Assembly: GCA_044892505.1 (NCBI GenBank)
Contig: CM097884.1
Span: 40,176,001-40,240,000, forward strand
Reading direction: 5' to 3'
Length of the DNA stretch: 64,000 nt
Source: Schmidtea nova
Lineage: Eukaryota
Shown one piece after another: positions 901 to 37,355 of this stretch. The translations under genes and the position numbers were made by a program. Positions within the stretch are counted from its first letter, which is position 1. Every line of letters begins with the position of its first letter. Under the pieces are notes generated by a model. The model saw nothing but the letters and a program-made list of their open reading frames with translations. It made no database searches and was not told the origin of the DNA.

Positions 901-912
901 TGGTGTCAGAAG
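901..912 (+). promoter_or_regulatory. Primer-binding site (tRNA-Leu type) of the outer, decayed LTR element
   Basis: TGGTGTCAGAAG follows ...ttcaaca-aaaa. It is complementary to the 3' end of tRNA-Leu(CAA) (..CTTCTGACACCA) and matches the PBS of the nested element at 9166-9178. Confidence 0.75.
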
Positions 913-1504: not shown

Positions 1505-2577
1505 ATGCTCTGCCCAGTTTTTCTCGACACGCTCAATACAAGTCACGCCCACAACCCTACACAAATTTCTTGGACAACAGATTTTTCGACCACCACCGAT
1601 ATTTTTTCCCCAAAATATGTCTTAACGCACTTCAATAACAAAATAACTCAAGTAAATATCACTCCAGATCTATACACAGATATAGCTGCGTTTCGCCACA
1701 TTTACAGCACATCTTTTTATTTATCGACCAACGGATTTCGCATCGCTACAACCTCTGAAATCAAACCAAACTCGATCGTAGACGTCCATTTATGTATTTT
1801 TGGAGGCGCCTGACCTCAAACAGAACCGACTTCCTCACCCGGTTCCCGTCCAATTTTGTTTTTTTGGATCCCGACGGTACGCCCTAGTCGTGATTCCACA
1901 TTTTTGAATCGCATACGTCGTCTTCCCCAAAATCACGTGCAGATTATCTACTCGACAGAATACCCTCTGAGTTGATAGCCGAGCTTGCCCTGAAAATAGC
2001 TGATGCTCTTTATGCAGATAACCCTTACGATGATTTGAAATCCCTGATAGTATCCAAATATACCTCGTCACAGACCCAGGCTCTCACAAAACCTTTGGCA
2101 CCACAAAATTACGCCGGACAATAACTCAGTATTTAGTTAGCACAGATTGCTCGCTCCAACGACACCGACGTACCTGATCTTCCCAAAAACACACAGCTCT
2201 TAAAACATCAATTTCTTTCTGCACTTCCATACCATTTACAAACCTCCCTGCATTGGTTGACTCTTAAGACCCGTATCATATTGATAAAATAACCGATCAC
2301 ATTTACGCACTTCAACCCCATAAACCACGCACCGATAATTACACACTACCATCACCATCTCCCAACACATACACCTGATAACCACTACGCTCGCAACGTC
2401 GAAAGATATGCCAACCACACGCCGCCCTCGCATAATGTACAACATCCAAACCAACCACCAACAACACGCACACAAAACATACAACCCAATAATGGCCCAC
2501 AACTAATTTGCTTTTACCATAACAGATTTAGACAACAGAAATGCTGCATCGGTTGCACTTCCGAATTCCGTACGCGT
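1505..2577 (+). pseudogene. gag: Ubiquitin-like domain (..IVDVHLCIFGG) followed by degenerate gag, 5' part
   Basis: ORF 1505-1813 ends FYLSTNGFRI..IKPNSIVDVHLCIFGGA*. The same frame continues toward gag motifs, with stops and an apparent 1-nt loss in the T-run at 1859-1865. Confidence 0.65.
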
Positions 2578-3896
2578 TTTGATATACCGGAAACCACACC
2601 AAGGTATTCAGATTTTTGGTGTGGTTGCCGATTCATCAATTTTATTTTTGTTCCCTGGCTGATTAATTTACATAAATTTACAAAAAAATATGAAGGTACT
2701 TTAGTTTTGTCGGATAACAGGGAAAGTAGGATGCCGGGTCGAATCAAAGCTCTATCGAAACCATCGGGTAATCTCCCAACGAGGATCTCATAAGATTGAA
2801 TAACCACGTAAAAACGATACACACATGGATTTGATAGTACAGTACATACGCTAACTACATTCACTTTCGGATCTTGATAGGACATCAACTGACAATAAAA
2901 TCGTAATTTTCTTAAGATTAATAAGTTCATCATATAAGAACCTTCAAAAATGCATATTGTACAGACAATGAATACAAACAATCCGAAAATAATGTCGATG
3001 TAATAATGTTGGACGATCATTGTCAAAGAACTATAGAGAGTAGCATTCAACATTAAAGCCATACCGGTGAACGGCATTTGGCCTTCCGACTTAAAACATC
3101 TACTAGAAGAATCACTTTTAAAAGGTTCGAGCAATTCCCGGGCACTTAAACTCAATCTGCCATAACTATTCACTGAAACCGGATAACGGGGGCCTTTAAA
3201 GTCACTCAAGCACATTTTTGGAGTCAAAATAGGCAAGTTATCCACCAAGAACTCGATCCTTATTTCCCACGGGAGTTGATTAAATATCAATTTTAAACGG
3301 AGAGATATATTCTGTACACATATTTCGATCTTTATAAATTTCTCTCTCTCGGTAACAAATTCAATGTTATCACTAAGATTGACATAAAAGTAGAGCACAA
3401 TAACAACTTTGGCATAGCATTGTTTATTAAAAATATTTAGTTTTAAAGTTTTAGATGGTTCCATAAATCCCTTCATTTCTAAGGCGACTATTTCTGGGAT
3501 TTCAGGCAGAATAATCACTGGCACGTTAGCGATGTAAATCGGCTGATAGCGCTTACCATGCGATTCAACTAATCTGCTGATTCCATGTTTATCATTGATG
3601 CGGAAATATCCCGACATTGATTCCTTGTACTCCGTAGTGATGTATCCATAGGAATTGATAGGCACTTCCAAACATTTACCGTTAGTTGAAACTTTCAATG
3701 GTCTGACATCTAGAAAGAATTTGTAATAAAAGACGTTTATTTTCCACTTCATATTGACAAATTCAACATTATAAGTTGCCGTAGCATTAACAGATTCAAT
3801 ATTCCTGGCGATGTCTGTCAGTCTAATATCTGCTGGCAACAAGTTGTTTGTAAAGATACTGTGGATGAATTCCAAAATATAAATTAATTTTATCAT
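2514..3896 (-). CDS. 3'-LTR copy of the LTR-encoded ORF, running out into flanking DNA; probably not the expressed copy
   Basis: Same as the first ~440 aa of ORF 7769-10498 except one V/D change; the two diverge at the LTR boundary. Confidence 0.5.
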   Translation of the reverse strand: MIKLIYILEFIHSIFTNNLLPADIRLTDIARNIESVNATATYNVEFVNMKWKINVFYYKFFLDVRPLKVSTNGKCLEVPINSYGYITTEYKESMSGYFRINDKHGISRLVESHGKRYQPIYIANVPVIILPEIPEIVALEMKGFMEPSKTLKLNIFNKQCYAKVVIVLYFYVNLSDNIEFVTEREKFIKIEICVQNISLRLKLIFNQLPWEIRIEFLVDNLPILTPKMCLSDFKGPRYPVSVNSYGRLSLSARELLEPFKSDSSSRCFKSEGQMPFTGMALMLNATLYSSLTMIVQHYYIDIIFGLFVFIVCTICIFEGSYMMNLLILRKLRFYCQLMSYQDPKVNVVSVCTVLSNPCVYRFYVVIQSYEILVGRLPDGFDRALIRPGILLSLLSDKTKVPSYFFVNLCKLISQGTKIKLMNRQPHQKSEYLGVVSGISKRVRNSEVQPMQHFCCLNLLW

Positions 3897-4197
3897 AATA
3901 AAATCGATTAGTAATAAGTTTTAATAAATTTGTTTAAAATATTTATTTTGTATTAATTTGTGCGCGGGTTAACCGCTTAACAATCTCTTTTAAACAATGG
4001 GCAATAAAATATACAAATAATAAAATTTTTACACATTTAATAATTCTTTCGCATAATCCTAAACAATGTACAATAAAATTTACAAATAATAAAATTTTCA
4101 CATGACTAACAACCTTTTTACAACTCCGATTCACACAATTTCGGAGGTACATAAAACACGCATGAACATCTATTTATGGTGTCCAAAGAACATTACA
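2580..4197 (-). repeat. 3' LTR (1618 bp)
   Basis: Direct repeat of 9182-10799. Confidence 0.95.
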
Positions 4198-4200
4198 TTA

Positions 4201-4210
4201 CCCCCCATCC
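4201..4210 (-). promoter_or_regulatory. Polypurine tract
   Basis: GGATGGGGGG 3 nt before the 3' LTR on the minus strand. Confidence 0.7.
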
Positions 4211-4286
4211 AGTAACGCGGAGCGTTTTTCTTAAAAGAAAACAAAAAAAAGATTTTAGAGGTGTTAGTATTGGTGCCCGCTCTAAG

Positions 4287-7200
4287 TTACAAGTCGTTAG
4301 TTCTAGATAGGCGGATTGGTAAGTTTGGGTTTTCGCCGATTCTTTTAGTTCGGTGCCATTCTGCTATACGCACTTTCTTAATTTGTTGTGCCTTGGGTAT
4401 CTTATTCGATGATTTTAGGATGGGTTTCAGAGTATATTTTGAAGTAGGAGTTGATTGAGTTTGCTGATCCAATATAGTTGCCGGGATAAACCATGTGTTA
4501 TCTGGTTGCGATGATTGTGTTGTTCTCTGTATTGGTATTTGTTTCTGGTTAGCTATTGGTTGTAATGTGCTGGGTGATGGGTTTTCGATTTCTAACTGAG
4601 TGGTGGGGTGATTAGTTATGAGGGATGGAGTGATTTCATTTTTGATTGGAAGTAATTTCGGTGGTGATAAAAATTGCTGAGGTAAGCGAACGACGGTCGG
4701 GTTATCCCTCTGCAGATTATGGGTTTGTATGGGGTCTGGAGGATTTGGTGGTGTAAAGTCTTGTGTCTCAGCATGCGATGTGATATTTGTAGGACTGGGG
4801 TCTTCTTCCATATAACCAAAAGCTGGCTTGAGACGGGATAGATTTATAATTGTATCCATTCCATTAATGGAAACTTTTGCAGTGCCGTTATCAAGTATTT
4901 GGAGAAGGGAATACGGTCCTTCGTAGCGTGGTTTTAGGCCGATATCGGCAATTGAGCGGATCCATACATGAGTTGCGCGATCAAAAGATCTTGGAATATA
5001 TGGTTTGTAAGTGTTTGACATTGAAAAATTTGGGTTTGAGTCCAAAGATAGGAAATGGTTTCTTGCATCCGCTAGATTTTCTAAAGTTGGTTCGCCGTTT
5101 AGCTCGACAAGTTCGTTTGGTAACATGACGTTAGTACCGAACAGTAGTTGAGCTGGAGACGAACCTGTTGTTTTTGATGGCGTATTGCGCCATCCTAGTA
5201 GAACAAAAGGTAGGGCCTTTGTCCAGTTCTTTGAAGTAGAAAGTATTCGGAGGGATGTCTTGAGTGTGCGGTGAAACCGCTCGACAGCTCCGTTTGTTTG
5301 TGGGTGGTAGGTACTAGTCCTCAGGTGTTTAATTCCTAGTTGTGTCGAAAGTTGTTTAAAAAGATGGGATTCGAATTGGGGTCCTTGATCGGTAATGAAA
5401 TGTAGAGGAACACCAAATATCGAGATCCAATGTTCTATGATCGCCGATGCTACAATATAAGCAGAAATGGATTTTAAAGGAACAGCGACTGGAAAACGAG
5501 TTTTTCTGTCCAGCATGGTTAATATATGTGTGTAACCGTTGTCTGGAGGAAGAGGTCCAACTAGATCGACATGCACCACTTCAAAACGGTTTCCCGTTGG
5601 AAAGTTATGTAAGGGTGGTCGAGTATGTCGGTGGATTTTGTGTTGTTGGCATCCTAAGCAAGATTCACACCAGTCTTTTACGTCTTGTCTCATACTTGGC
5701 CAAATGACACGAGAACGTAGTAGATTGTATGTTGCAGACGTGCCCGGATGGTGAAGGTTGTGGGTGTGGTTGAAAGCTTCGCGCCTTAACTTTTCTTGCA
5801 AAATTGGGCGGATATTTCCAGATAAGGCGTTGTCGTAGTAGATGCCTTTATCGAAAACCGTTGTATTTTGGAAGAATGACAGGTCTTTTGGGGAAGGTGG
5901 TAGAGACCTGAGAACGTCGTCAGTGAAGATCGGCTCAGTAGTGATCGTTGCAACAAGATTTCGCGATAGATAATCTGCTACAATATTCTGGCGACCTGGG
6001 AGATGGGTGATAGTGAACGCGAATTCTGATAGGTAGCTGATTTGACGTCCCTGTCTTGGTGAAGGGGTCTTCATTTCCATCATGTGAACTAGCGGTTTAT
6101 GGTCCGTCTGAATAGAAAAAGATCTGCCTTCGAGTAAGTAGCGGAAGTGGCGGACTGATTCATAAATCGCTAATAATTCGCGGTCAAACGTGGAATAGCG
6201 TTGTTCTTGTGTGGTTAATTTGCGTGAAAAGAATTCGATTTTCTCTTGACACCCTGTGTTGTTCTGTTCGAGAACTCCAGCAATGCCAATGTTGGACGCA
6301 TCGGTAGTTAAAAATAGGGGTAGATTGTTCTTTATATATGACAAAGATTGTGCTGTCGACATTGCGTCTTTGACGGATTGAAAAGCTCTTTCCAGTTCGT
6401 CATTCCACGGTAGGAGAGAGTGTTTTGGGCCGCTACAGAGAGCGGAAAGAGGTGCGGTGACCTCGGATATCCTTGGAATAAATCGGTGACAGAAATTAAC
6501 AGTTCCTAAGAAGCTGCGCATTTGGGAAACTGTATTTGGTCGTGAAAAATTGCGGATTGTATCTAGGCGTTCTGGAAGTGGTCTTACTCCGGACGTCGAT
6601 ACAAGGTGTCCAAGGAATTTTATTTCCGATTGAAAGAAGGAACATTTGTCCAAGTTAATTTGCAAATTGTTATTGTGCAATAACCTGAACACTTCTTTGA
6701 TATGTTCAAGATGTTCCGTTGCATCTTTGGACCCGATGAGGATGTCATCGATGTATGCCACCATGTATTTCTTGTCTCCTAAAATATTGTCAATGTGGCG
6801 CTGGAACGTTTGAGCTGCGTTTCGGAGACCGAATGGCATGTATTTGTATTCAAACAAGCCAAAAGGGGTGATAACAGCGGTCTTCGGGATGTCTTCTGGT
6901 GCTACCGGGATTTGGTGGTAAGCCTTTTTTAGATCTAGAGTGGAGAAGATTGTAGCTTCAGGTAATCTCGAAAGAACGTCTGATATAAGTGGCATGGGGT
7001 AAGAGTCATGTATAGTGACTTTGTTGAGGCGTCTGTAGTCACCACAGGCGCGGATAGATCCGTCTTTTTTTGTAACCACATGGATGGGTGATGCCCAAGG
7101 GGAATTCGATCGGTGTATAGTACCGGCTTCGAGTAGCTTATTGAATTCTTCCTTGACAAGTGTGAGCTTCTCGGGCGCGAGTGGTCGCATACGTTCTCTG

Positions 7201-7784
7201 TTAGGCATACCGTTATTGGTGACTATGACGTGTAGAAAAGAGGGAGTTTGTTTGTGATTGTTTGATCTCTTTTCGACGTTTGGGAACGTCTTTAGTAATT
7301 GTTGTATATAGCAAGGTGTGGCGGGTAAGACATTGAGGGCGTCGCTACAGAGGTGGTCAAGAACTTGAGCTCTAGGTGTGTGCTGTGAGAGGATTAATTT
7401 GCGTTCTCTGCAATCAGGGAGTAAACCTTCGGCATCAAGAAAATCGGCACCTAAGAGTGGATGAATCACCTCGGCGACTTGGAATGTCCATGAAAAAGTT
7501 TTGGACAGACCAGGAATTTGGAATATTAAGTTTTTTGTTCCAATAGTGGAAAAGTTTTCGCCACTGGCTGTCCGGAAGGACCTTTTTTGATTATTATCAA
7601 TTCCGAACCGATTAGGTAGGAATGAGATGATGGAACCGCTATCGATAACGAAGTGAATGGGGGCATCGACTTCATTAGAGTTCTGGGAATGAGGTACGGC
7701 GGGAACAGAAAAGAGTCCACAGGTTATGGGATCGCCATCAAAAACTGTGGGGGAGTTCGATGGCGTTTTCAGTTTTCCGAAGGC
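4287..7784 (-). CDS. pol: Pol (protease, RT, RNase H, integrase with GPY/F motif, Pro/Thr-rich tail), -1 frame relative to gag
   Basis: The frame is open from 7784, upstream of the track's start at 7469. Motifs: FVIDSG, YIDDIL, TTDAS, H..H/C..C, VHVDLVGP, TDQG, VERFHRTLK, RYEGPY. Confidence 0.93.
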   Translation of the reverse strand, partial: AFGKLKTPSNSPTVFDGDPITCGLFSVPAVPHSQNSNEVDAPIHFVIDSGSIISFLPNRFGIDNNQKRSFRTASGENFSTIGTKNLIFQIPGLSKTFSWTFQVAEVIHPLLGADFLDAEGLLPDCRERKLILSQHTPRAQVLDHLCSDALNVLPATPCYIQQLLKTFPNVEKRSNNHKQTPSFLHVIVTNNGMPNRERMRPLAPEKLTLVKEEFNKLLEAGTIHRSNSPWASPIHVVTKKDGSIRACGDYRRLNKVTIHDSYPMPLISDVLSRLPEATIFSTLDLKKAYHQIPVAPEDIPKTAVITPFGLFEYKYMPFGLRNAAQTFQRHIDNILGDKKYMVAYIDDILIGSKDATEHLEHIKEVFRLLHNNNLQINLDKCSFFQSEIKFLGHLVSTSGVRPLPERLDTIRNFSRPNTVSQMRSFLGTVNFCHRFIPRISEVTAPLSALCSGPKHSLLPWNDELERAFQSVKDAMSTAQSLSYIKNNLPLFLTTDASNIGIAGVLEQNNTGCQEKIEFFSRKLTTQEQRYSTFDRELLAIYESVRHFRYLLEGRSFSIQTDHKPLVHMMEMKTPSPRQGRQISYLSEFAFTITHLPGRQNIVADYLSRNLVATITTEPIFTDDVLRSLPPSPKDLSFFQNTTVFDKGIYYDNALSGNIRPILQEKLRREAFNHTHNLHHPGTSATYNLLRSRVIWPSMRQDVKDWCESCLGCQQHKIHRHTRPPLHNFPTGNRFEVVHVDLVGPLPPDNGYTHILTMLDRKTRFPVAVPLKSISAYIVASAIIEHWISIFGVPLHFITDQGPQFESHLFKQLSTQLGIKHLRTSTYHPQTNGAVERFHRTLKTSLRILSTSKNWTKALPFVLLGWRNTPSKTTGSSPAQLLFGTNVMLPNELVELNGEPTLENLADARNHFLSLDSNPNFSMSNTYKPYIPRSFDRATHVWIRSIADIGLKPRYEGPYSLLQILDNGTAKVSINGMDTIINLSRLKPAFGYMEEDPSPTNITSHAETQDFTPPNPPDPIQTHNLQRDNPTVVRLPQQFLSPPKLLPIKNEITPSLITNHPTTQLEIENPSPSTLQPIANQKQIPIQRTTQSSQPDNTWFIPATILDQQTQSTPTSKYTLKPILKSSNKIPKAQQIKKVRIAEWHRTKRIGENPNLPIRLSRTNDL
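7717..7778 (-). promoter_or_regulatory. -1 ribosomal frameshift signal (G_GAA_AAC plus predicted H-type pseudoknot)
   Basis: Gag/pol overlap is only ~5 codons. After a 6-nt spacer come stem CGCCATCGAA/TTTGATGGCG and loop CCACAG pairing with downstream CTGTGG. Confidence 0.7.
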
Positions 7785-10498
7785 TTATTATACGAATTTT
7801 GATTAACTTTACTGGTATTGTGATTACCAGTATGGAAACGGCAGCCTTCCAAGCATGTTTTGGCCTCGGTCTTAAATATTGCGTGATAGATGCAAAGGTT
7901 GCGAGGCAGGCATGTTGGAAGTCGGTTGTTCCACCTACAACCGACATAGCAATGTTGGGCTTTGTCTCCATACGTCTTATGGTAGGAGCATATGAGCCCT
8001 CGTGCAGATGTGGACCGATGTCGTTTTTGATTGTTGTCACGACTGTCTGTTCGACTTCGACCTCGGGTGTGTAGACTTGCGTCTAAATTGTCCATCCTCG
8101 CTGTTAAAGCAGCTATGGCGCTGACTAGTGCTCCTAATTCGGCGTGTGGGAGGCTTGTTGTTGCGACTACCGGTGATGGAGTAACAGGTGACGTGTTGAT
8201 TTCCACGATCTTGTCGGCAATTTTGGCCAGTTCTTCCAATGTTGTGTTTGGAACAACGGCCAGAATGGACTGTGCTGATGTAGGTAGTGCTTTTAGAAAG
8301 AACCTACGGAGTAGAGCGTCGTCTTTGGTAAGACCAGCCTGGATCCTCTCGAGTTGTTCCTTGGCTCGCTTGAGGAAGGCGCTTGGTCTTTCATTATTGA
8401 GAGGTTGATTTCGGAACCAAGCCTCATATAAATGATCTAATTTTGGTCGGTAGGCGTCTAGCACTGCCGATTTCAGTGAGTTGTAGGGCTCACTTGCCGT
8501 GGCTGCGGTTGCAATGGCGGTGGACAATGTGGTGTAAATAGTGCTTGGAAGCATGGACAAGAGTGCACCAAACTTCTGCCCTTGAGATTGAGTGGGTAGA
8601 AAGGTTGGAGTCACTTCTAGTGCCAGGAACCACGTTTGTGGGGAGCCAACGCCGTCTAGGAAAAACGGTATTGGGGTAATAACTGGTGTTGTTTGTTGTG
8701 TTGGCGGTTGTATGTGACTGATTTCACAGTCTGTGTTAGCCTCATCAGTTTGCATTCCTCCAGTCAAACGGGGAATAATGTCGAAATAGGTGGTGATGAC
8801 TGGGGTATGTGTCGCCGATTGGGACTTCTTGACAAAGAAGTGGCGGTGTGTTTCCTTTGGGACGCCAATTGCTAGGAGCAATGAAGACATTGAGGACAAA
8901 TGTGACTTCGTCGGACACAGAGGTTGCCATCCGGAAGTCTTGTTAGGACACCGGAAGAGGAACTTGTGTGATACTTGTTTCCTCTTAATGTTTAAAAACC
9001 CGGTTGTTCTTATGATGTGGTTTCCATGTACCGTCAATTCAGTTAGTCCCGCCCAGGATTGTAGCGCCTTCATTTGGGAAGGAATAGGAAAAATAATAAA
9101 TGTGGGAATAGAATAAAATAAAGTGTTATTTAGGGTAATATAAATGTTACTGGAGGGAGGGAGTAACTTCTGACACCAATTTGATATACCGGAAACCACA
9201 CCAAGGTATTCAGATTTTTGGTGTGGTTGCCGATTCATCAATTTTATTTTTGTTCCCTGGCTGATTAATTTACATAAATTTACAAAAAAATATGAAGGTA
9301 CTTTAGTTTTGTCGGATAACAGGGAAAGTAGGATGCCGGGTCGAATCAAAGCTCTATCGAAACCATCGGGTAATCTCCCAACGAGGATCTCATAAGATTG
9401 AATATCCACGTAAAAACGATACACACATGGATTTGATAGTACAGTACATACGCTAACTACATTCACTTTCGGATCTTGATAGGACATCAACTGACAATAA
9501 AATCGTAATTTTCTTAAGATTAATAAGTTCATCATATAAGAACCTTCAAAAATGCATATTGTACAGACAATGAATACAAACAATCCGAAAATAATGTCGA
9601 TGTAATAATGTTGGACGATCATTGTCAAAGAACTATAGAGAGTAGCATTCAACATTAAAGCCATACCGGTGAACGGCATTTGGCCTTCCGACTTAAAACA
9701 TCTACTAGAAGAATCACTTTTAAAAGGTTCGAGCAATTCCCGGGCACTTAAACTCAATCTGCCATAACTATTCACTGAAACCGGATAACGGGGGCCTTTA
9801 AAGTCACTCAAGCACATTTTTGGAGTCAAAATAGGCAAGTTATCCACCAAGAACTCGATCCTTATTTCCCACGGGAGTTGATTAAATATCAATTTTAAAC
9901 GGAGAGATATATTCTGTACACATATTTCGATCTTTATAAATTTCTCTCTCTCGGTAACAAATTCAATGTTATCACTAAGATTGACATAAAAGTAGAGCAC
10001 AATAACAACTTTGGCATAGCATTGTTTATTAAAAATATTTAGTTTTAAAGTTTTAGATGGTTCCATAAATCCCTTCATTTCTAAGGCGACTATTTCTGGG
10101 ATTTCAGGCAGAATAATCACTGGCACGTTAGCGATGTAAATCGGCTGATAGCGCTTACCATGCGATTCAACTAATCTGCTGATTCCATGTTTATCATTGA
10201 TGCGGAAATATCCCGACATTGATTCCTTGTACTCCGTAGTGATGTATCCATAGGAATTGATAGGCACTTCCAAACATTTACCGTTAGTTGAAACTTTCAA
10301 TGGTCTGACATCTAGAAAGAATTTGTAATAAAAGACGTTTATTTTCCACTTCATATTGACAAATTCAACATTATAAGTTGCCGTAGCATTAACAGATTCA
10401 ATATTCCTGGCGATGTCTGTCAGTCTAATATCTGCTGGCAACAAGTTGTTTGTAAAGATACTGTGGATGAATTCCAAAATATAAATTAATTTTATCAT
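7769..10498 (-). CDS. gag: 909-aa LTR-ORF / Ubl / Gag fusion; Gag proper starts at Met582 (8755)
   Basis: Uninterrupted ORF crossing the LTR end and the PBS. PRLTGG precedes MQTDE. Gag motifs: PFFLDGVGSPQTWF, RPSAFLKR, FFLKALP, and two CxxHx9Cx3C knuckles. Confidence 0.9.
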   Translation of the reverse strand: MIKLIYILEFIHSIFTNNLLPADIRLTDIARNIESVNATATYNVEFVNMKWKINVFYYKFFLDVRPLKVSTNGKCLEVPINSYGYITTEYKESMSGYFRINDKHGISRLVESHGKRYQPIYIANVPVIILPEIPEIVALEMKGFMEPSKTLKLNIFNKQCYAKVVIVLYFYVNLSDNIEFVTEREKFIKIEICVQNISLRLKLIFNQLPWEIRIEFLVDNLPILTPKMCLSDFKGPRYPVSVNSYGRLSLSARELLEPFKSDSSSRCFKSEGQMPFTGMALMLNATLYSSLTMIVQHYYIDIIFGLFVFIVCTICIFEGSYMMNLLILRKLRFYCQLMSYQDPKVNVVSVCTVLSNPCVYRFYVDIQSYEILVGRLPDGFDRALIRPGILLSLLSDKTKVPSYFFVNLCKLISQGTKIKLMNRQPHQKSEYLGVVSGISNWCQKLLPPSSNIYITLNNTLFYSIPTFIIFPIPSQMKALQSWAGLTELTVHGNHIIRTTGFLNIKRKQVSHKFLFRCPNKTSGWQPLCPTKSHLSSMSSLLLAIGVPKETHRHFFVKKSQSATHTPVITTYFDIIPRLTGGMQTDEANTDCEISHIQPPTQQTTPVITPIPFFLDGVGSPQTWFLALEVTPTFLPTQSQGQKFGALLSMLPSTIYTTLSTAIATAATASEPYNSLKSAVLDAYRPKLDHLYEAWFRNQPLNNERPSAFLKRAKEQLERIQAGLTKDDALLRRFFLKALPTSAQSILAVVPNTTLEELAKIADKIVEINTSPVTPSPVVATTSLPHAELGALVSAIAALTARMDNLDASLHTRGRSRTDSRDNNQKRHRSTSARGLICSYHKTYGDKAQHCYVGCRWNNRLPTCLPRNLCIYHAIFKTEAKTCLEGCRFHTGNHNTSKVNQNSYNKPSEN
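9166..9178 (-). promoter_or_regulatory. Primer-binding site, tRNA-Leu type
   Basis: TGGTGTCAGAAGT, 3 nt after the 5' LTR end. Confidence 0.85.
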
Positions 10499-10799
10499 AA
10501 TAAAATCGATTAGTAATAAGTTTTAATAAATTTGTTTAAAATATTTATTTTGTATTAATTTGTGCGCGGGTTAACCGCTTAACAATCTCTTTTAAACAAT
10601 GGGCAATAAAATATACAAATAATAAAATTTTTACACATTTAATAATTCTTTCGCATAATCCTAAACAATGTACAATAAAATTTACAAATAATAAAATTTT
10701 CACATGACTAACAACCTTTTTACAACTCCGATTCACACAATTTCGGAGGTACATAAAACACGCATGAACATCTATTTATGGTGTCCAAAGAACATTACA
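9182..10799 (-). repeat. 5' LTR (1618 bp), containing ~440 codons of ORF
   Basis: TGTAAT...ATATCA; direct repeat of 2580-4197. Confidence 0.95.
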
Positions 10800-10804
10800 C
10801 GCGT

Positions 10805-10918
10805 CATAACCCAATCATTCCAATGTGCATTCACCATCACCTTTTTAAGAACGAGGCCAAATCCTGCCTCAAAGGATGTACATGGCACACGAGCAGTCAC
10901 CACCATGCAAAAAATTAA
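10805..10918 (+). pseudogene. gag: 3' end of the outer element's gag (second CHCC knuckle)
   Basis: HNPIIPMCIHHHLFKNEAKSCLKGCTWH..AKN* parallels CIYHAIFKTEAKTCLEGCRFH..SEN* of the inner gag. Confidence 0.8.
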
Positions 10919-11157
10919 TCGAGTCATTGGATATTCATGGACGCTCCGACGACTTCCTTCCAGTGAGCACTCTTTATCACAGCAAACCACGTCCAACGCA
11001 CACAATATCAATTCCACCAGAAAATACCATTTCAGACATGACCGCTACTCTCACACATAACAATTAACTCACACAAGTCCACCCTCACACCTCTCGGCAC
11101 ACCTCCCGGAACACCTCGCACAACACAAATACCAACACCACCACCAGCAAAAACATC

Positions 11158-11454
11158 ATGCTCAGAACCACCAGCATCATTGAGAAATCAACATTCACAA
11201 AACCACCAGAAGCACCACTATCAATGCCAAAAACACCTCCACCAACAAAAATACCATACTCAGAACCACCAGCGTCACCACCAGCATCACCACCAGCATC
11301 ACCACCAGCATCACCACAAACATCAACATTCACAAAACCACCAAAAGCATCACTGTCAATGCCACAAACACCGCTCACCCCTCCTCACGACGAAATCCGC
11401 ACAAACAACACGAACATCCTACCACAGCGCCACCAATTACCACCGCCACCATAA
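11158..11454 (+). repeat. Pro/Thr-rich low-complexity region with (CCACCAGCATCA)n and a duplicated TCAACATTCACAAAACCACCA unit
   Basis: PPAS repeats and two STFTKPP units. Confidence 0.75.
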
Positions 11455-12048
11455 GCAAGGCAACCCTAACCACACCAATTTTAACCAGAGTTGGTGTATT
11501 GCTCTTTTAAAATTTAAACAAACCATTAAGATTTTACTTTATCCAATTATTTCGCTTTCTACCTTCGCTCCGCTCTACTTTCTAGGGTCGCAATACACAC
11601 ATAAAAAGCATACTGTTTATGTAACCGTGAATTTCCCTACTAGTTCACGTAGGTAATGTACATAACAGCCGATCGCAAGCCAGCAGGTGAGCTCCTTCAC
11701 AAGAACTACTCCTGGCTTGTCGCTTCGTTCGGGTTCTGACTGACAGATAGAAGGTCTCATTCATGCTATTTCCTCACCCAGTCACAGGTCTCTTCTTTAG
11801 AGTGAACTTAATACTCTAACTTTACCTTTCTATTTACTTCAACATGTCACTAAAACTTTTCCCTCAAGATCTATCCTATTCTCTTAAATAGAGTTTCCAA
11901 AATATCCGGTTTTTTAGTATCCGCGAATACCGGTTTTCATTATTCGAAAACCGCGGTTAACCGTTTGGATACGGATATTTTGGAAATAGCTAATTTAAAA
12001 AAGAAAAGATAAAAAAAACTCGAAAAATTGTCAATTTAAGATGAAAAT

Positions 12049-12255
12049 TTATTCACTTTTTTCATTTATATACAAATATTTTAGGAAAACTAAGCAATTT
12101 AGAGAATAATCAGATAAACGGGTTCGAAGTTTGCCACAAAAGTGGGAGGAAACAGAGAAAGTCCTTTCGGCTTCGGTTGATGATGGTTTTATTGTTGTTA
12201 AGGCTTCAAATAATTTTTCAAGTTTTTCAGGCCTTTGACCTGTTTTCTTAAATAT
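12049..12255 (-). pseudogene. hAT transposase C-terminal dimerisation domain
   Basis: FKKTGQRPEKLEKLFEALTTIKPSSTEAERTFS..RTRLSD; in frame with 27219 once one ATAT copy is removed. Confidence 0.88.
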
Positions 12256-13332
12256 TGTTCGGTTCGTATCAGTGGTTTACGACGAACACAGAAATATAAA
12301 TATATATTTGATACTTTAGTTTGATTATCGGACTCCAAACGATAATCCGCTTATTAATTATAAATAAATTATATGTTTTAGGTTGTGTGTAAAGAAAAAC
12401 AAGATCTAATTCCTTTTAATAATATGTATTGTGAAATATGTAAATCAATGTACAATATAATAAAATAGCTGCTAAGCAAAAGTTAGAGAATCGGTTATAC
12501 AAACCGTCCTAAGATGTTTAAGAACGAAAGCTGGACCTAAAAGGCTCAACAGCTCCGACTAAATGAAAGGACACAAGATGAGGGGTTTCCCTGTAGTTTA
12601 ACCGCGATAGTGACAACCCAGAATTGGTTGTCACTGTGACTTAATAATTTTCCCTTCTAATAATTTATTATTTAACGATTTTGCTGAAGGGGAAAAATAG
12701 TAATACAACTATTTCCCCGTGATCGATTTATAAGATTTAAAACAAAACTAGGAAAATTACCAGCTACTAAAGATTATTCCAATTTAGGGAAATTATCACG
12801 AACGAAATTCAAGCTAAGCTTCTTGTAATACTTCTGCCGTAAAATTAATTTCTCCAATTCACAAATTTGTCAAACTAAAATTCTAAAATTCACTTCGGTA
12901 AAATTTATGTTCTGTAAACACTTATGTTTCTCTCTCTACTTCTGTCAAAATTACTTTCTGTTTCAACTGATTTTGCAATCAGTTTATATACAAATTATTT
13001 TCTCTCATGTAGGTCTAGACGACCACCTATTACTAACTACGTGTAGGTCGAAATTGACCTTACAAAATATTACTTTTAAAGTAATTTATTATTACTATAT
13101 ATATCTTATTATTACTATTTAAATTTCTTATGTATTTATTTATTACTATATTTATTATATATTATTTAATTATTACTGTATTTAATCTATATTTATTTAT
13201 AGTAATTATTTATTTATTTTCTATTTATCTATCTATTTATAGTATTTTTTTTAATTACTATTTATATTTATTTATTTACTTATAATATTTAATTACAAAA
13301 ACCCCGAGATCCCTTGATCTCGAACCCTAACA
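12256..13332 (-). repeat. 3' LTR (1077 bp)
   Basis: Direct repeat of 26138-27214. Confidence 0.96.
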
Positions 13333-13334
13333 TG

Positions 13335-13344
13335 TCTTCCCCCT
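13335..13344 (-). promoter_or_regulatory. Polypurine tract
   Basis: AGGGGGAAGA 2 nt before the 3' LTR. Confidence 0.75.
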
Positions 13345-13627
13345 AACAAGATTTTCGTCCCGAAAATTAAAGCGGAAAAGACAAGAAGGTTCAGCAGCCA
13401 AAAATAAAAAAAATAAAACAACAACACATGCATATATACATAGAATGCACTTGGTCAAAATGAGTCTCATAAAACACATAATACATAATTAATGTTGATC
13501 ACAATCGATATCAAATAATAATTGTCTGTAAGCGTTGGATTGTTGATCACATAGCCGAAATGCTAATTGTTTGATTGATAGTTGTCATAGCTTATAGCTA
13601 GACCTTGAATTGAACGTAGCAGAAATG

Positions 13628-15592
13628 CTAGTTATCCTTCGCGAATAGGTTTTGAGCTGCTCTCTTGCGAATATGCGCTTGCTCGTTCTTGATGCGATCT
13701 TCCACTATATCTGGTCTATAGCTGACCACCAATGTTTCGCGTGTTTCGACTTCCTTATATACCAAAGACGAAATCACGTATGATTTTCCGTTGGCCTCCA
13801 ATACGCCATAGTAAGGGAAGTTTGAAACTGATGATTGGTGTACCGGTTTCCCGTCGTATTCTTTTATCCGAGGTACCCAATTTCTCTCTGGTCGCTGCCA
13901 AAAACTAGGGTCTTCATTGTCCAAATCCTGGGGTATCTTTGCTGAATTTCCCGTTCCAACGAAATCCCCTTCTCTTATAATAATAGGTTCGCCCTTAACC
14001 TCCGGAATCTGTTCCATATCGGGTGGGATGAATGCTGTTTCGATTAAATCTTTGTCTTCCGTCGAGATGGGATTTGGTACTTTCTTTTTGATCTTTAGAT
14101 CTTGTAACCTTACAACAGGTTCTTGACTTTTCTTTGGGGGTGACTTTTCTACTGAAGTCAATTTTTTAAAAGTCTTAGTAACTTTTTCCAAGAGCTTGTT
14201 CTCTTTCTTTGGTGGATTTTCTGGCACGATCTTTGTAATTGTACGGCTGTCTCCGTGTAAAGTTAAACGCATCTCTGTTTGCTCCTCACCCTCGCTTTCG
14301 CAGGTGGCGTAATCGTCTTCATCAGCTAAGGATATAGCTGGAGGGGATAGTGATTCTTCCTCAACTATCTTTTGCAATTTGGTTGATAATGGTTGTTCCT
14401 GGGGTAAGCTCTCAATAGCTTTCCTTTTACTCGTTTCTTGTGGCTGTATTGTATGAACCATTTTGACTTCTGATGTAATCGTCCCACTACGATTACCTGG
14501 GGTAATGTCATCTACCCAAACTTCTCTCAGTTTAAGGTAAATATTACGTGTCGTTTCCACGTCATTTTCCGTTTTCAGATCTGAACGGTTTAGTTCTTCT
14601 TTTTCGAGAATTGACTTTGATAAATACGCGAGTCGATAATGTCCGTTACATTTCTTTAGTTCTCTCGCTTCCAGGCATTTTGCTGCTCCTAGTTCTCTAA
14701 TGCCCAATACTCGTTGAGGGTGTAACTGGACTGCTTCCAAGAAATCGTTGACTTGGAGACCTATTAGAATTTTCCCATCACATAATTTTCTAATACGGTC
14801 TGCGCAATCCTCTCCATCAAATTGTCCGATGATTTCTTTTTCGGTCATACCATGCGCGTGCGATTGGTAATGTTTGACCTGGTTTCTGGGTGTAACCACC
14901 GTGTTTAGTATTAAATCACCACAGTAGTTTGCTATCGAAACAGCCACCAAAGCTGGCTTTAAATAATCTCGCAAAGTTGCGTAATGCGCTGCAACAAATA
15001 TTGACAATCTATCTTCTTGATTGGGGTGCAGATTCATCCGAACAAAGGATTTGAATGATTTGAGATCGTTCTCATTCACATTATAGGTCCAGGCAGGTTC
15101 ATTTTTCCACAATGATTGCACTGCCTTGCTAGGTTCCAAAATCTCTAATACCACAATAGTATTATATCCGTCACATTGGATGGAGATATTCTTTTCTCTG
15201 CCATCTCCGTTACTAATTTCTAGAGTTGATTCTGGTTGAAGTAGGATGGGTCCTGTGGCTCCTGCCATGAAGATTGTAAAGGGTTTATTGATCGCGTGAA
15301 TCAGGAGATGGTGAGTAAATGTTGATCTGTTAAATTCCGCCATGTGTTCAGTCAACCGGGTGTTCTCACGGCTGGTAATTGTGACTATGCACATTTGTCT
15401 CTTAGGCGATCCGAGAAACTTAAAATTGTTTGGGATGCCGGTGCAGTGCCCGTAATACCAATAGCGACGACCTTTCCGTGCTTCTGCGGATATCGCTTTT
15501 TCGATGTTTCGATAAATCAGTTTTTCCTTCTGTACTGTTTGCACATCGATAGTGCTATAACGCTGCTTGTATTGTGACACTTGATGCTTCAT
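13628..15592 (-). CDS. Accessory ORF2 with REX4/ISG20-like DEDDh exonuclease-fold domain (ExoI acidic residues absent); likely from a spliced mRNA
   Basis: ALVAVSIANYCGDLILNTVVTP..VKHY....HGM..KILIG..ENDVETTRNIY resembles REX4 motifs. A strong acceptor TTTTTCTTTCAG lies 2 nt before the ATG at 15592. Confidence 0.75.
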   Translation of the reverse strand: MKHQVSQYKQRYSTIDVQTVQKEKLIYRNIEKAISAEARKGRRYWYYGHCTGIPNNFKFLGSPKRQMCIVTITSRENTRLTEHMAEFNRSTFTHHLLIHAINKPFTIFMAGATGPILLQPESTLEISNGDGREKNISIQCDGYNTIVVLEILEPSKAVQSLWKNEPAWTYNVNENDLKSFKSFVRMNLHPNQEDRLSIFVAAHYATLRDYLKPALVAVSIANYCGDLILNTVVTPRNQVKHYQSHAHGMTEKEIIGQFDGEDCADRIRKLCDGKILIGLQVNDFLEAVQLHPQRVLGIRELGAAKCLEARELKKCNGHYRLAYLSKSILEKEELNRSDLKTENDVETTRNIYLKLREVWVDDITPGNRSGTITSEVKMVHTIQPQETSKRKAIESLPQEQPLSTKLQKIVEEESLSPPAISLADEDDYATCESEGEEQTEMRLTLHGDSRTITKIVPENPPKKENKLLEKVTKTFKKLTSVEKSPPKKSQEPVVRLQDLKIKKKVPNPISTEDKDLIETAFIPPDMEQIPEVKGEPIIIREGDFVGTGNSAKIPQDLDNEDPSFWQRPERNWVPRIKEYDGKPVHQSSVSNFPYYGVLEANGKSYVISSLVYKEVETRETLVVSYRPDIVEDRIKNEQAHIRKRAAQNLFAKDN

Positions 15593-15778
15593 ATCTGAAA
15601 GAAAAATAATTAACGTTAATATCAGATATACTGATAGGCCAATATTGGCTAAAAAGAAATGCATAAATCTCGATTTACGGGATCTACTTATGCTGTAAGT
15701 TAATGCTACTCGGAGCTCAACAAGATTATAGATTTTAATATATATATAAATACAAATATGCGATTTTATCTGTAATTG

Positions 15779-18700
15779 TCATAATCTCGTCATCATAATC
15801 CCATCAACCGACTCAATGGCCTGACTGAAGAATAGTTTCATCCAAACTCCCATTGCTATCAATGTAGTGATCATAGCTAATACTGCTGACGTAATAATCC
15901 ATACCCCAACGGGTAATTTTCCCAAGTGAGTAATGGGGTTTACTTCATTAACTTCACACTGACAACTTTTAATATAGCTTTCTGTTGATACTGTTGGTTT
16001 TACCATTTTCAATCCTTTCAATCTCTGCCATATTGCAGGATGAATGACGTAACTTTCTTTCCGTATCAATGATGTAACCGATTTCATTGTCGTCGATGAT
16101 TGTGGTAATTTCAAAGAGATAACTTCATAAAATACCTCATTCCATTCATCGACTCCTGGCTTTTGTTTATTATTCATATAAGTGATATGAGCTTCCCACT
16201 CCACTGAGCTGTTCCACTTGAGATTTTGTTTCTCAATATCTTCATTTAGCCACAATTCTTGTACTATTTCCTTGTCGGAATGGATTTCTATCTTTACTCT
16301 ATCCACTCCTTGTTTTGGTTGGCTGAAGGTAATCATACCTTGTTGGATATTTATTCTAACTTTCCTTTTGAAATCTGCTGTCTTCAACTTCCATTGTGAC
16401 TTTGAAAAATCTGACCATCGTCCAAACATAAAATGTTGAACAAGTATATCTAACAGATATTCCTTTTCTGCTCGTAAGTCCTTTATGACTTTCACTCTTG
16501 TGTTTGAATCCAATGTAAAATGGAAACAACGTCGTTCGCAAAACGAGAACTTGAATTTTGTATCATTTTCAGCTAATGATATTATCCTAAATTCCTGGAA
16601 AGATCTTCTAAATGCGAGATCTTGAATTTGTACCGCTGTTGGAACAAATGTCTTTACACAGGATATAAGGCAACTTATTATTACCAAAAACGTAACTGAT
16701 TTTGGCACGCCTCTTGATCGTAATGGATATCTGTCTGAGACTGGTTCTGACCCTTTATCCTCCTTTTTCTTAATCGGATCTTTCTCCGTGACCGCAACTT
16801 TCTTGCATCTGTTAGCATGTACCATTATTGGTTCAGCTTTTCTATTTGCTACTAATTGCAAGATTAAATTCGTGTCTGTGGTTCTCAAAACCTCATATGG
16901 TCCTTTGAAGTTTCTCATTAATTTAGGTGATAAGCCCTTTTTATTATAATGGCTTTCCAACATCACCTTGTCTCCAACTAACATGCCATGTCCTTTGGCT
17001 TTCTTATCATGATAATCTTTCGACGCTTCCTGACTGAATTTTATACTAAGACCTGCTTTTGTCCATGCTTCTTGCATTCTTTCTCTCATTTCCATGAGAT
17101 AATCCTCTTGGTCTAAATACTGCGTTGCTTTTGGGAAAAACAACAAGTCTATAGGCATTTTACTTTGCCTTAAATACATGAGATAGAACGGCGTTTGTCC
17201 CGTACCCTCATGAACAGCATTTCTGTATGCGAATAGGCATGATGGAATATGTATATCCCAATCCGTTTGCCCTGAATTTACGTATGATGCTAGCATATTT
17301 GCGAGCGTTCCGTTAAATCTCTCTACCAATCCGTCTGTTTGTGGATGGTATGGAGAGGTATTCAGTTTTAAAATGTCGAAATAATCATTTATTCCTTTTA
17401 GCAGATTACTCATGAAATCTGCTCCTCTATCTGTTAGTAGTTTTGTAGGTACTCCATACCTAAAAACAATTTGCTCTACGAAAATCCTGGCTATCGTATC
17501 GGCCTTGTGATTCGGTATCGGATAAGCCTCCGGCCATTTCGTCAAGTAATCGCAAAATACCAATATGTATTTGTTACCACTATTTGACTCTTTGAATGGC
17601 CCTAAAACATCCATTGCCGTCATTTCCATCGGTGTGGATGGTACTGGCATTGGTTTCATTGGCACATGCGGTTTCTTCCCCGTATTTCTCCTGGTGATAC
17701 AGATCTTACATGTCTGACACCATTCCTGTACGTCTTGTTTGATTGTCGGCCAGAAATATTTCTGCTTCAACCTTGACAATGTTTTCCTGGAAGACAAATG
17801 CCCTCCCAGTGCTCCATCATGATATTGTAACATCAAAGCTTCGCGATATTTCTTAGGGACCATTATGACATTATCCCTTACGTCTACATATTTGACTAAT
17901 CCTTCTTCTAGAATAAATTTGTCTCGATTTTTCTCCCAATATTTATTAAATTCCGTCGGTATGAACTTTGCTTCTAAAGCCTGTCTGATTTGGTTTATCT
18001 CTTCATCCGATTGTTGTGCTGCCATTAAATCCGCGAGTCTGTTTGCTTCTCTTGTAAGTGCGAAGATTGTTCCTTCTAATCTTCCTTCCTTAACGTCTTC
18101 TGCTTCATCACCCTGGTCCATTCGAGAAAATGCATCTGCATTCCCATTTTGGTGTCCTTTTCGGTAATGTATTTCGATGTCGTATGGCTGCAAGATCAAT
18201 GCCCATCTAACCAATTTTGATGTGTCCATAGTATGCTTTGTTAACCACTGTAATGGTCTATGATCCGTATACACAATGATCTTTCGACCCCATAAATATG
18301 TCCTGAATTGGTGTATAGCATACACAATTGCTAATGCTTCTAATTCGATAACTGCGTAATTCATTTCATGTGGTTTTAATCCTCTGCTAGCATACGCTAT
18401 GGCATATTCGTCTCCTAGGTCATCTCTTTGACCTAACACAGCACCAATACCCCGAGTGCTGGCGTCCGTCATGACCAAAAATTGTTTCTCAAAATCTGGA
18501 AACCGTAATATAGGAGGTTCCACGAGCATCCTCTTTAGCATATCAAATGCTTCCTGTTGTTCTTTTCCCCATACAAATTTGACATTTTTGCCCTCTAATT
18601 GTGTCAGAGGAAATGCTATTGCCGAAAAGTTCCTGATGAACTTTCTATAATATCCCACTAAGCCCAAAAACCCTTTTATATGTTTGACTGTCTTTGGCTC

Positions 18701-21700
18701 TGGAAAATTCTTTGCTTTCTCAACATTTGCTGGATCTGGTTTTACTCCATCCTTCGAGATAATGTGACCGACATAGACTACCTCTGATTCGGCCCATTTA
18801 CATTTCGATGGTTTTACCTTAAGATTTGCATTAATTAACCTTTTGAATACGTCCTCTAAATGTTCTAAATGTTTTTCCAAATCTGGAGAAAATACTATGA
18901 TGTCATCTATGTATACCATTGCATGATGAACATCCATTAACATTAGATTCATGGCTCTTTGAAACGTTGCCGGCGCTCCTGTGAGACCAAATGGCATTAC
19001 TGTATATTCGAAGTGTCCAAGGCTTGTAGAAAAAGCCGTAATTGGTATTGTCTCCTCTTTTAACTTGATTTGGTAAAATCCCTTCTGAGCATCCATCACT
19101 GAGAAATATTTTGAATTTCTCATGCGTCCGTAAATGTAATCCAGTAATGGTAATGGGTGACTATCCTTGCAAGTTGCTTCGTTTACCATTCGATAGTCGT
19201 TGCATAGTCGTACCGTTCCATCCTTTTTGGCCACCACTATCATTGGTGACTGGTATGGTGATTTACTATGCCTGATGATGTTATGTTTTAACATCAGTTT
19301 TACCTGCTTATCGACAGGTTCTTCCAAGCTAAACGGAATTCGATACGGTCTCAGTTTTATTGGTTTCGTGTTGTTAAGAACAATTTCATGTTCCAACAAG
19401 TTCGTCTTTCCCAGATCATATTCGTGCTTGGCGAATACTTGATCATATTTTCTTAATAACATGTTGACTTGGATATTCTCTCTTCGTGAAAGAGCTTTGC
19501 TATTTGCCGTTGGCGCATCATAGTACTCGATGTCTGATTCTCTATTTTCTGCCTTTATTGTCAGGACAGATCCTCCATTTGGTAATTGATCCGACTTTGA
19601 TACTCTCCCTACTCTTGTATCTGGGTACAATTTTAATGGTTTTATATCTAAATTGGCTACCCGAATTGGTATTCTGCCATTTTCAACTTTACCAATGCTA
19701 TGCGTAATTGGTAGATTATATTTTGCTGAGAACCTTTCATCTGGTTCGAATACAACTTCTCCTTCCCACTGTTCGCTAGTGGACACGAAACATACTGTTT
19801 CTGCTCTGGGTGGTATTATCATCGTATGGTCGATGAAAACTGTATCATCATTATAAACTTTTCTTTTCTTACCGATTGATCTAACTAACAATCCGGTAGC
19901 ACAGTCAAATACAACTCCTTTTAATCTTCTTAAAAGATCCATTCCTAGTAGACATTCTACTGGACAAGTTCTCATGACTATAATATCATGACGAAATTCT
20001 TGGTCACATAGCTTGATGTTACAAGCTAGAGTACCAATAATATTCAATGATGTGCCTGTAGCACCTGTTAGCGAAACTCTTGAGGTTTCCATTGATTCCA
20101 ATTCTTTTTGATTTAATAGTGTTGCCTCTATGATGGTGCCGTCTGCTCCTGAATCTATCACTGCATTAACTGTGTGTCTGTTTATTTTTATCTTTATCAT
20201 GGGTTTCTTATCCAAGTTCACCCCATTTGCCATCAAAATAGTAGCATGCGTTATCCCGATGGTATTTGCTCTGAATTTCTCTGCTTCATCTTGTTCGGTA
20301 TCACTCAATTTTGGATTATATTCCTTAAATTTAGCTTTTATTGCTTCTAACGACTCGATAGGATACAGTTTCCCTTCATTTTCTAACGATAATGATATGC
20401 TTTTACCAGTCTCTCGAGCATCTTTGTCGAGAATTTGTTGATGTTTAGAAATGTACATTTTGTTTCTTGGAGTGGTTAAAGCATAATTTTGTTTGCCCTC
20501 TCCTGATGTCTTTTGAAACTCTGGCGATTCCCCCTTTGGCGCTGTTGGCAAGCTTCTAAGATATGGTAATTGCATATATCTTGGGCTTCTTTTCAATCTA
20601 GGTGATGCTGTATTGATTGTAAATTTCTGGTCTGCACTATCGTATTCATCTTCTGAAATCATACTTTTGTCGAAAATCTGTTTTGTCGCTTCGTAAGGTG
20701 GTTGATAATCCCGATATTTCATTTTCCTTAACTGATGATTCGGTTTTTTATTGTAGTTTCTTTTTCGACTTCTACTTTGCCTCTGAACTGTATTAAGAGA
20801 GTCTCCATTACCTCCTCCTTCCGAATTGTTATCGTCCCGATAACTTGTATTACCCTCCATTTCGATTCCAATAATCTCGTGTTTTACCAAGCTTCTCTGT
20901 TTGATTGTCTTTATTTCTTTACGATGATGTTTAAACAATGCAAATTCCGCACACATAGGACACAATCCTAGTATCAACTTCCAAGACCATCCACCGATTT
21001 TGAATATACTGTATGTGGAGATTAATTGTGTTATTATTAACTTTAGAATTACGAATATTGCATATATTCCTGAGCAGCCTGCCACGAAAATACCAAAATT
21101 GGTAAACCTTCCCCATATTTTCATCATCACATTTTTAGCTGCTTCTTTATAATGATCTGGACCGAATAATAAATTGTAATCTGGTCTCATTTCGTTTGCT
21201 TGGTAAATTGTTCTTATGATTTCAGTGATACCTCTTTCTCTTACTTGAGGGAATAGCAATGTCTGTCTTGCCTCCTCAATGTCTGCTGAAGTGTAAATTC
21301 CTCCTTGTGATAATTCATCGAGTGATTTAAATTCCATGTTTTCCTCGAGTTTCGTGACTTCCAATGTTTCCACCTTTCTATTAGATGGTTTTCTGTCAGG
21401 TAATGAGATCCATCTATCATTTACCTTGTATAACGGTGATATTGCTGGATTGCAAATTGAAGGTTGAGGCTTTTGTTTTTCATCCAAAAGTCTCCTCGTA
21501 ACTGGCATTACAAATCGTATTTTGTTTTGATATGACACTGGTAATTCTAGAGTACATTCATTATACCGAGTTAATTGTACCTCTATGGGTTGACATTGAT
21601 AGCTGTATATAGCTTCCCCCATAATTCTGCCAAACATTCCATCTTCTAGCAACATAGGTGTCACTAGATCCGGATTCACAATTGATATCGCTAATCGATT

Positions 21701-26056: not shown

Positions 26057-26116
26057 AACTTTTGTCTTTTTAGGAGCTATTTTGTTTATAACAATATGCC
26101 CACTGATAATAATTGT

Positions 26117-26134
26117 ATCACGTCGGGCTCACCA
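26117..26134 (-). promoter_or_regulatory. Primer-binding site, tRNA-Trp type (18 nt)
   Basis: Plus strand ATCACGTCGGGCTCACCA matches the eukaryotic tRNA-Trp 3' end ATCACGTCGGGGTCACCA at 17/18. Confidence 0.85.
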
Positions 26135-26137
26135 AAA

Positions 26138-33530: not shown

Positions 33531-33585
33531 TTCCTTTTCGCTTTTTTATATATATTTTAATTAGATGGAATATATTATATATATA

Positions 33586-37094: not shown

Positions 37095-37355
37095 ATGTTC
37101 ATTTACAGTAACATTATTGAACCAATAATTGTCGGTGATTCTCTGGTTCCTCTACTGAAATCGGTATGGATCGAAAAATATGAAAAGGATGAAGTTGTAC
37201 AAATAGTAATGGATAATCCAATTTATTTACCTATTTCTACCTCATGTATAAACAATATAGAAATAAATATCCGTGACGATAGTGGTAAATTAATAAATTT
37301 TCCAAAATATTCAAAAACACATTTGACATTACATTTTCGTAAATTAAATGATTAA
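37095..37355 (+). pseudogene. Minor capsid (penton) C-terminal part
   Basis: FIYSNIIEPIIVGDSLVPLL..PIYLPI..IEINIRDDSG..LHFRK, typical of Maverick pentons; the N-terminus is missing. Confidence 0.8.

Follow-up and report, generated by a model that had tools for sequence, protein, structure and literature searches.

The window, by which we mean the whole 64-kb stretch of DNA that was analysed, is AT-rich eukaryotic DNA crowded with mobile elements. Two of these are nested (Table 1). The inner one, a young gypsy-type element on the minus strand (2578-10799) with unbroken gag and pol, is inserted in the Gag of an older plus-strand element, here called the outer element, between the two zinc knuckles of the latter. 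LTRs, target-site duplication, PBS, polypurine tract and the order RT-RNase H-integrase identify the inner element as Ty3/gypsy. RT, integrase and any other Pol match were looked for in the outer element and none was found, nor was there a repeat between 1-900 and 11461-12255 that could represent an LTR pair (score 35, shuffle mean 33); with neither an LTR pair nor Pol, it is assigned to Ty3/gypsy because of its Gag homology and its PBS. The outer copy is best explained as a dead, Pol-deleted member of the clade, a deleted remnant, and the best explanation for the two nested elements together is membership in a single Ty3/gypsy LTR retrotransposon clade, their CHCC Gag marking them as CsRn1-like. 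Both knuckles of the inner Gag match CX2HX9CX3C exactly, as does the second knuckle of the outer Gag, the first having 7 spacer residues instead of 9. We take the 12-mer common to both elements to match the 3' end of tRNA-Leu and hence to be a Leu-type PBS, which, if so, sets them apart from the tRNA-Trp type of CsRn1. No tRNA gene was found in the 64-kb window.

Table 1. Features of the nested outer and inner elements (window positions)
Feature	Position	Strand	Remarks
Outer PBS-like 12-mer TGGTGTCAGAAG	901..912	+	identical 12-mer in inner element
Outer open frame, 193 codons	1044..1625	+	hydrophobic stretch near 1401-1457; frame differs from that of the Ubl
Outer ubiquitin-like (Ubl) domain, predicted beta-grasp, ending in GG	1613..1807	+	
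Outer Ubl-Gag linker	1808..1866	+	two breaks: stop 1811-1813, frame change about 1853-1866
Outer decayed Gag, DUF7041 core, to first CHCC-type knuckle	1861..2577	+	Pfam DUF7041 E 6.7e-6; interrupted by inner element
Target-site duplication of inner element, CGCGT	2573-2577 and 10800-10804		
Inner 3' LTR, 1620 nt	2578..4197	-	
Inner Pol frame, unbroken	4287..7784	-	RT, RNase H, integrase (Pfam); overlaps gag end in another frame
Inner 917-codon frame	7769..10522	-	LTR-coded region, PBS, leader, degenerate Ubl, Gag with two CHCC knuckles
Inner 5' LTR	9180..10799	-	1 mismatch to 3' LTR
Inner LTR open frame, 447 codons	9180-10522; copy 2578-3920	-	no stop at LTR end; 5' LTR copy runs in frame into Ubl-Gag
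Outer Gag continuation after insertion	10800..10918	+	second CHCC knuckle 10823-10912; stop after A AAA AAT run
Outer Pro/Thr-rich remnant	10919..11600	+	carries CGCTCCGC, a motif also preceding the inner polypurine tract

The long inner frame is open without a break at the DNA level, from within the 5' LTR across the PBS to the end of Gag. Its LTR-coded part, which exceeds the longest frame seen in 500 shuffles (137 codons), has a hydrophobic N-terminus, four N-x-S/T sites and one membrane-like segment near 9604; database searches with it returned nothing usable (no Pfam match, PHROGs E 0.007 over the hydrophobic part, PDB E 0.27). Since an AATAAA lies ∼50 nt ahead of the first ATG of this LTR frame, we infer that the frame would sit in U5. 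The inner Pol frame also carries a protease-like DSG motif. The 193-codon frame of the outer element is a probable leader remnant: an open frame of that length occurred in 1 of 2000 shuffles of 901-1625, and searches of Pfam and PHROGs gave no match to it. We noted candidate -1 frameshift runs at both gag ends, G GAA AAC in the inner element (7769-7784, minus strand) and A AAA AAT in the outer (10907-10918, plus strand); many relatives end in KN.

The Ubl domains of the two elements

A preliminary description of this DNA had reported a Ubl ending in GG upstream of the outer Gag, starting at 1612. Reading from 1612 meets stops, and the frame of the Ubl is that of 1613, where its first K is encoded; with this correction the peptide is present as described, its tail L-C-I-F-G-G (GG at 1802-1807) being followed, again as described, by A (1808-1810) and a TGA stop (1811-1813). 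The same frame had been described as leading on to the gag start motif; past the stop it continues to ...SRPILFF, and the motif FLDPDGTP, from 1861, lies in another frame, 53 nt beyond the end of GG and thus at no multiple of three. The stop and the non-triplet spacing mean that two breaks separate this copy's Ubl from its Gag. Since relatives carry similar residues directly before FLD, the frame change can be placed within or beside the T run at 1859-1865, where the description had put it. Five further stops interrupt the outer Gag frame, at 1885, 1891, 2122, 2134 and 2290.

Used alone, the outer Ubl (66 amino acids) found no match in Pfam, PDB sequences or PHROGs. A family profile was built from 33 database Ubls and tested on 1385 six-frame segments of the window, among which the outer Ubl ranked first with 25.8 bits (E 7.9e-7), the runner-up scoring 11.4. 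It outscored 1000 of 1000 GG-ended shuffles under four profiles, and a profile from which its own sub-branch and two near-ubiquitin members had been removed still gave it 18.8 bits, the best shuffle reaching 12.4. The nearest relatives of the outer element, P0096 and P0040 (branch support 100/99), each encode a single chain from Ubl through GG-A into Gag. P0096, an unbroken Ubl-GG-Gag from another locus, is 37% identical to the outer Ubl over 68 ungapped residues. AlphaFold2 modelled the outer Ubl with the order beta-beta-alpha-beta-beta-beta at pLDDT 87, from an alignment that included two near-ubiquitin rows, and a Foldseek search with the model placed ISG15, NEDD8, SUMO and ubiquitin on top (TM up to 0.76). 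Because of these near-ubiquitin rows, a second search was made using a seven-row profile of the outer sub-branch alone. All 35 of its PDB matches at E ≤10 were ubiquitin, ISG15, SDE2 or Ubl fusions, the best at E 0.019 and SDE2 at E 0.048. The residues at the Ile44 and Lys48 positions of the outer Ubl are S and F. Profile scores and modelling both indicate that the outer element is the carrier of a real ubiquitin-fold (beta-grasp) domain ending in GG.

The corresponding domain of the inner element, which ends at 8756, keeps the tail ...PRLTGG, followed by M. Its body scored 3.8 bits in leave-one-out profile tests, last of 36 and the sole one below 15 bits, and 10-78 of about 1000 shuffles scored as high. 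Its model has a pLDDT of 62, a best Foldseek E of 0.21 (no match at E 0.001) and a best Z of 5.9, to ubiquitin; searches of PDB sequences and Pfam returned no match. The inner element is young and unbroken, yet its Ubl body is the least typical and the tail alone is convincing. The place of the domain ahead of Gag and its clade membership lead us to read it as a putative Ubl that has worn down.

Relatives and history of the clade

To survey relatives we used the inner Ubl plus Gag core as a phmmer query against 1.84 billion representatives, obtaining 1144 proteins at E ≤0.001, the best 150 of which were examined; these matches were driven by Gag and not by the Ubl. The motif counted was hydrophobic-x-GG no more than 70 residues upstream of the Gag core. 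Within the best 150 of 1144, ranks 1-45 had the motif in 35 proteins, and in all 34 of those with at least 40 upstream residues, and ranks 46-150 had it in 2 of the 21 with at least 40 upstream residues, both inside the clade. GG matches in P0065 and P0093 were dropped, as they lie no more than 21 residues from the protein start and have no Ubl. A word-index search returned 8 proteins, 3 of them new and 2 of these with the GG motif; word-index searches with the inner Gag and for longer fusions gave no match, a null result of little weight. Altogether, the GG tail precedes Gag in at least 39 database proteins and in the two window elements. PF00240 matched 11 of the 36 relatives scanned at E ≤0.05, 3 of them above the Pfam cut-off, and matched neither window Ubl. 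Two CHCC knuckles occur in 32 of 40 clade members versus 8 of 114 others among the matches listed, and 17 more distant Gags with at least 45 upstream residues, again among the matches listed, have no Ubl-GG. Five Gags inside the clade (P0011, P0017, P0020, P0025 and P0045) have no Ubl; all start fewer than 45 residues from the Gag core, and either truncated gene calls or true loss may explain them. We are nearly certain that the Ubl-GG-Gag architecture is real and clade-wide.

The leaders upstream of the Ubl are known as DNA for the window elements only, those of database members being known as proteins. Several long database proteins bear pieces of host genes (histone H2A, 5'-nucleotidase, Rrp44/CNOT1), so splicing or chimeric gene models may account for their leaders. 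Of 40 proteins, 14 show a PBS-like peptide ahead of the Ubl, and the leaders are mutually unrelated, with 1 pair in an all-against-all comparison. As a separate observation, the residue after GG is Met in 5 of 40 members (P0001, P0005, P0015, P0026 and P0044), perhaps a former Gag start codon, kept once the Ubl was gained; P0011, near-identical to P0012, begins with Met at the equivalent place.

For the history of the arrangement, a careful Gag-core tree was computed from 74 rows, including 16 of the 89 rows with fewer than 45 upstream residues; 7 of 153 candidate proteins were left out for short Gag coverage, and P0155 was likewise outside the set. One branch, with support 99/91, parts 41 GG-bearing rows from 17 long Ubl-free rows, a split that appears as one change in 200 of 200 bootstrap trees and again, with support 92, in a 147-row quick tree. 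A Ubl lacking Met could be hidden upstream of the 89 rows with short N-termini, which are known as proteins alone. A single separating branch argues for one old acquisition and not for independent captures, and the wider diversity on the Ubl-free side makes one gain the simplest reading of a tree whose root is not fixed.

The preliminary description was borne out in regarding the arrangement as more than a one-off capture. Its extension to the lineage as a whole holds for the sub-clade with two CHCC knuckles, on one side of the branch, but not for all CsRn1-like Gags. Its pairing of two very divergent Ubls that both keep GG is correct as regards GG, with the outer domain the better Ubl and the inner body hardly recognisable. 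The outer element does not, as it had proposed, show the fusion independently of the inner one, both being in the same clade; what they have in common is shared ancestry, with near-canonical ubiquitin probably gained later on at least one occasion. This gain concerns P0024, whose Ubl is identical to ubiquitin at 55 of 76 residues (72%), and P0042. The two are nested in a sub-branch with support 100/99, where the six other Ubls are 19-28% identical to that of P0024 and the Gags of the same six members 58-71% identical to its Gag. The Ubls of P0024 and P0042 are 60% alike, both near ubiquitin, with I and F at the Met1 position. These values suggest that fresh ubiquitin later took over, the alternative being unusually slow change on the P0024/P0042 branch. 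Median identity across the clade is 25% for the Ubl versus 34% for Gag.

Proposed processing of the leader-Ubl-Gag chain

Conservation within the Ubl is concentrated at its end. We compared 40 tails, a set chosen by a looser form of the same motif, and the resulting statistics are overstated in that they treat related sequences as independent. The Leu73 position is L, I, V or A in all 40 (L in 34) and the Arg72 position R or K in 33 (R in 28). Pro never follows GG (0 of 40, linker background 10%), and S, A, G, T, M or V does so in 33 of 40 (background 31%). As a rule, Ubl fusions that are cut by deubiquitinases end the domain in a diglycine with a hydrophobic residue two positions ahead of it and have no Pro behind it, a pattern that the outer tail shares. 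Among 34 divergent members, 28 have T, S or C at the Ile44 position and 9 retain Lys48. These counts indicate that the tail has been kept and the binding patch has not. A Met 68-84 residues ahead of GG was found in 2 of the 32 proteins that are long enough.

From this analysis we infer that the internal Ubl-GG is probably a cut site for host deubiquitinases that frees Gag from the upstream leader. A ubiquitin-derived domain would have been placed in frame directly before Gag in the clade ancestor. Translation would start within a leader ahead of the Ubl; leaders vary from element to element, and that of the inner element may be the long LTR-coded frame with its membrane-like segment. Cleavage after GG by a host deubiquitinase would then release Gag with a fixed, mostly small N-terminal residue, and would do so without the element's own protease, which would be made only in the rarer Pol product. 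The body of the Ubl would be able to drift because only fold and tail matter, and on at least one occasion fresh host ubiquitin would have taken the place of the Ubl. A broader picture, which we put forward tentatively and with some doubt, is of a leader-Ubl-Gag chain for which host deubiquitinases are the first processing enzyme; some LTRs (probably in U5) would encode an envelope-like or anchoring membrane protein ahead of the capsid in the same chain, and the Ubl cassette would wear down and be renewed from host ubiquitin mRNA.

Other readings of the same data have to be weighed against release of Gag from a leader. The Ubl might be cut off for the sake of Gag yield or folding, or to set an N-end-rule half-life, as in ribosomal ubiquitin fusions, the leaders being incidental. 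The small residues after GG agree with this, as do leaders that have no common sequence and in part are probably gene-model artefacts, and SDE2 is an instance of N-end control after such a cut (PMC6486553). We nevertheless think it unlikely, as so few Ubls have a Met of their own and the inner LTR frame is so much longer than those of shuffled sequences. If the Ubl instead stayed on Gag, it could help in assembly or provide a docking site for ESCRT, the proteasome or ubiquitin receptors. Ubl domains often occur as integral parts of proteins, and the fold is kept, by the 15-bit leave-one-out measure, in 35 of 36 members; but the Ile44 patch is gone in most, and an uncut domain needs neither the GG found at its end in 40 of 40 nor the R/K-L tail, which makes retention quite improbable.

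It is still harder to credit that the purpose of the cut is the freed Ubl, which would be conjugated to host proteins or act as a decoy for ubiquitin enzymes and so weaken host silencing. The frequent R at the Arg72 position, a free GG once cut and the two members near ubiquitin would be compatible with such a role, but the surface is unconserved, the Ubl has diverged further than Gag and the released piece would still bear the leader. The remaining possibility concerns the fusion itself: the outer stop after GG-A might be original, marking a free Ubl gene with a separately started Gag, or the database fusions might be gene-model artefacts. It is common for ubiquitin precursors to have a single residue after the terminal GG, and some database proteins are chimeric. 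However, there is no ATG between 1814 and 1860, the outer Gag frame contains its five further stops, P0096 and P0040 run on without interruption, and the inner element is continuous as DNA. This reading is already largely refuted, and we regard it as extremely improbable.

If host deubiquitinases do cut at Ubl-GG, Gag maturation would begin with a host enzyme, giving the host a control point and leaving the leader free to change. The ∼40 divergent Ubl-GG sequences would also form a natural panel for how little of ubiquitin a deubiquitinase needs, and near-canonical copies nested between worn ones would clearly illustrate repeated uptake of host mRNA into one slot. Ubiquitin-Gag fusions are known as laboratory constructs. 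The kind of element is known as well, and ubiquitin as a processing signal is probably a known trick in a new place.

Comparison with known systems and other features of the window

The CsRn1 clade was defined by the CX2HX9CX3C knuckle and a tRNA-Trp PBS (PMC2582038). The window Gags share the knuckle with its members PwRn1 and AgCR, and the overlap of inner gag and pol in different frames is one of three strategies described in the same paper (PMC2582038); unlike CsRn1, the present clade mostly has two knuckles and places Ubl-GG before Gag. The main text of that paper does not contain the word "ubiquitin" (PMC2582038). The RT-RNase H of the inner element is 44-48% identical to two unnamed DUF7041-linked Pols versus 35% to the other gypsy element of the window. 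Since the CHCC knuckle is present and the RT comparison extends to those two unnamed Pols only, we file the elements as CsRn1-like and not as members of CsRn1.

Captured ubiquitin in a polyprotein is known from pestiviruses, where cellular hydrolases cut the inserts of BVDV Osloss, CP1 and CP Rit and thereby give NS3 its N-terminus, the CP Rit insert being without its first residues (PMC8310069). These viral inserts are strain-level recombinants with near-intact ubiquitin before NS3 (PMC8310069), whereas here the Ubl is fixed across a deep and old retrotransposon branch, has drifted to about 25% identity and precedes the capsid protein. Host genes offer a second parallel of a divergent Ubl followed by a partner protein and cut after the Ubl, as we propose here: FUBI-eS30, whose processing requires the diglycine and USP36 (PMC8354635), and SDE2 (PMC6486553). 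In those the Ubl is N-terminal; in the clade it is internal, and on a mobile element. The sole Ubl-type motif in an LTR retrotransposon polyprotein that we found in the literature searched is that of Burro/GYPSM1, a giant planarian gypsy, with a Ubi2/SUMO-like motif downstream of its CCHC Gag, between MATH and BCL-2 domains (PMC6431247); the available text reports no diglycine or cleavage role for it. Ginger and Helitron transposons have likewise captured parts of the ubiquitin system, there an OTU or Ulp1 protease and not a Ubl (PMC2836005); Pfam found no OTU/Ulp1-type protease in the ORFs of the inner element. As far as its available text goes, PMC11011659 mentions ubiquitin in its references alone. 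We found no description of Ubl-GG before Gag in a literature search that reached few subscription journals and neither bioRxiv supplements nor repeat databases such as Repbase.

Another young gypsy element occupies 12256-27214 on the minus strand, with identical 1077 nt LTRs and one 3449-codon frame in the order CCHC Gag, Monjiviricetes-type fusion glycoprotein (E 5e-89), protease, RT, RNase H and integrase. As in planarian Burro, Env lies in frame between gag and pol (PMC6431247). Adjoining the polyprotein stop is a 716-codon frame (13628-15778, minus strand) for an ISG20-like exonuclease (PDB E 1.6e-5), and since a single stop codon separates the two, read-through is possible. A weakly Ubl-like stretch after the Gag of this element (24113-24325, minus strand; 6.4 bits, a single terminal G, no Pfam match) was not accepted.

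Elsewhere in the window, inverted repeats of about 585 nt (98%) flank a broken type-B DNA polymerase at 35494-48173, probably a decayed Polinton-like element; its frames at 37706-38938, with no Pfam match, we presume to be capsid-like. There are also a BED-finger hAT-like remnant (27706-28836, minus strand), another hAT-like remnant (52348-54303) and a DDE_3 (Tc1/mariner-like) remnant with short inverted repeats on either side (33572-34904). An N run with repeated flanks at about 29600-30090 and an exact 359 nt tandem duplication at 58534-59247 may both be features of the assembly.
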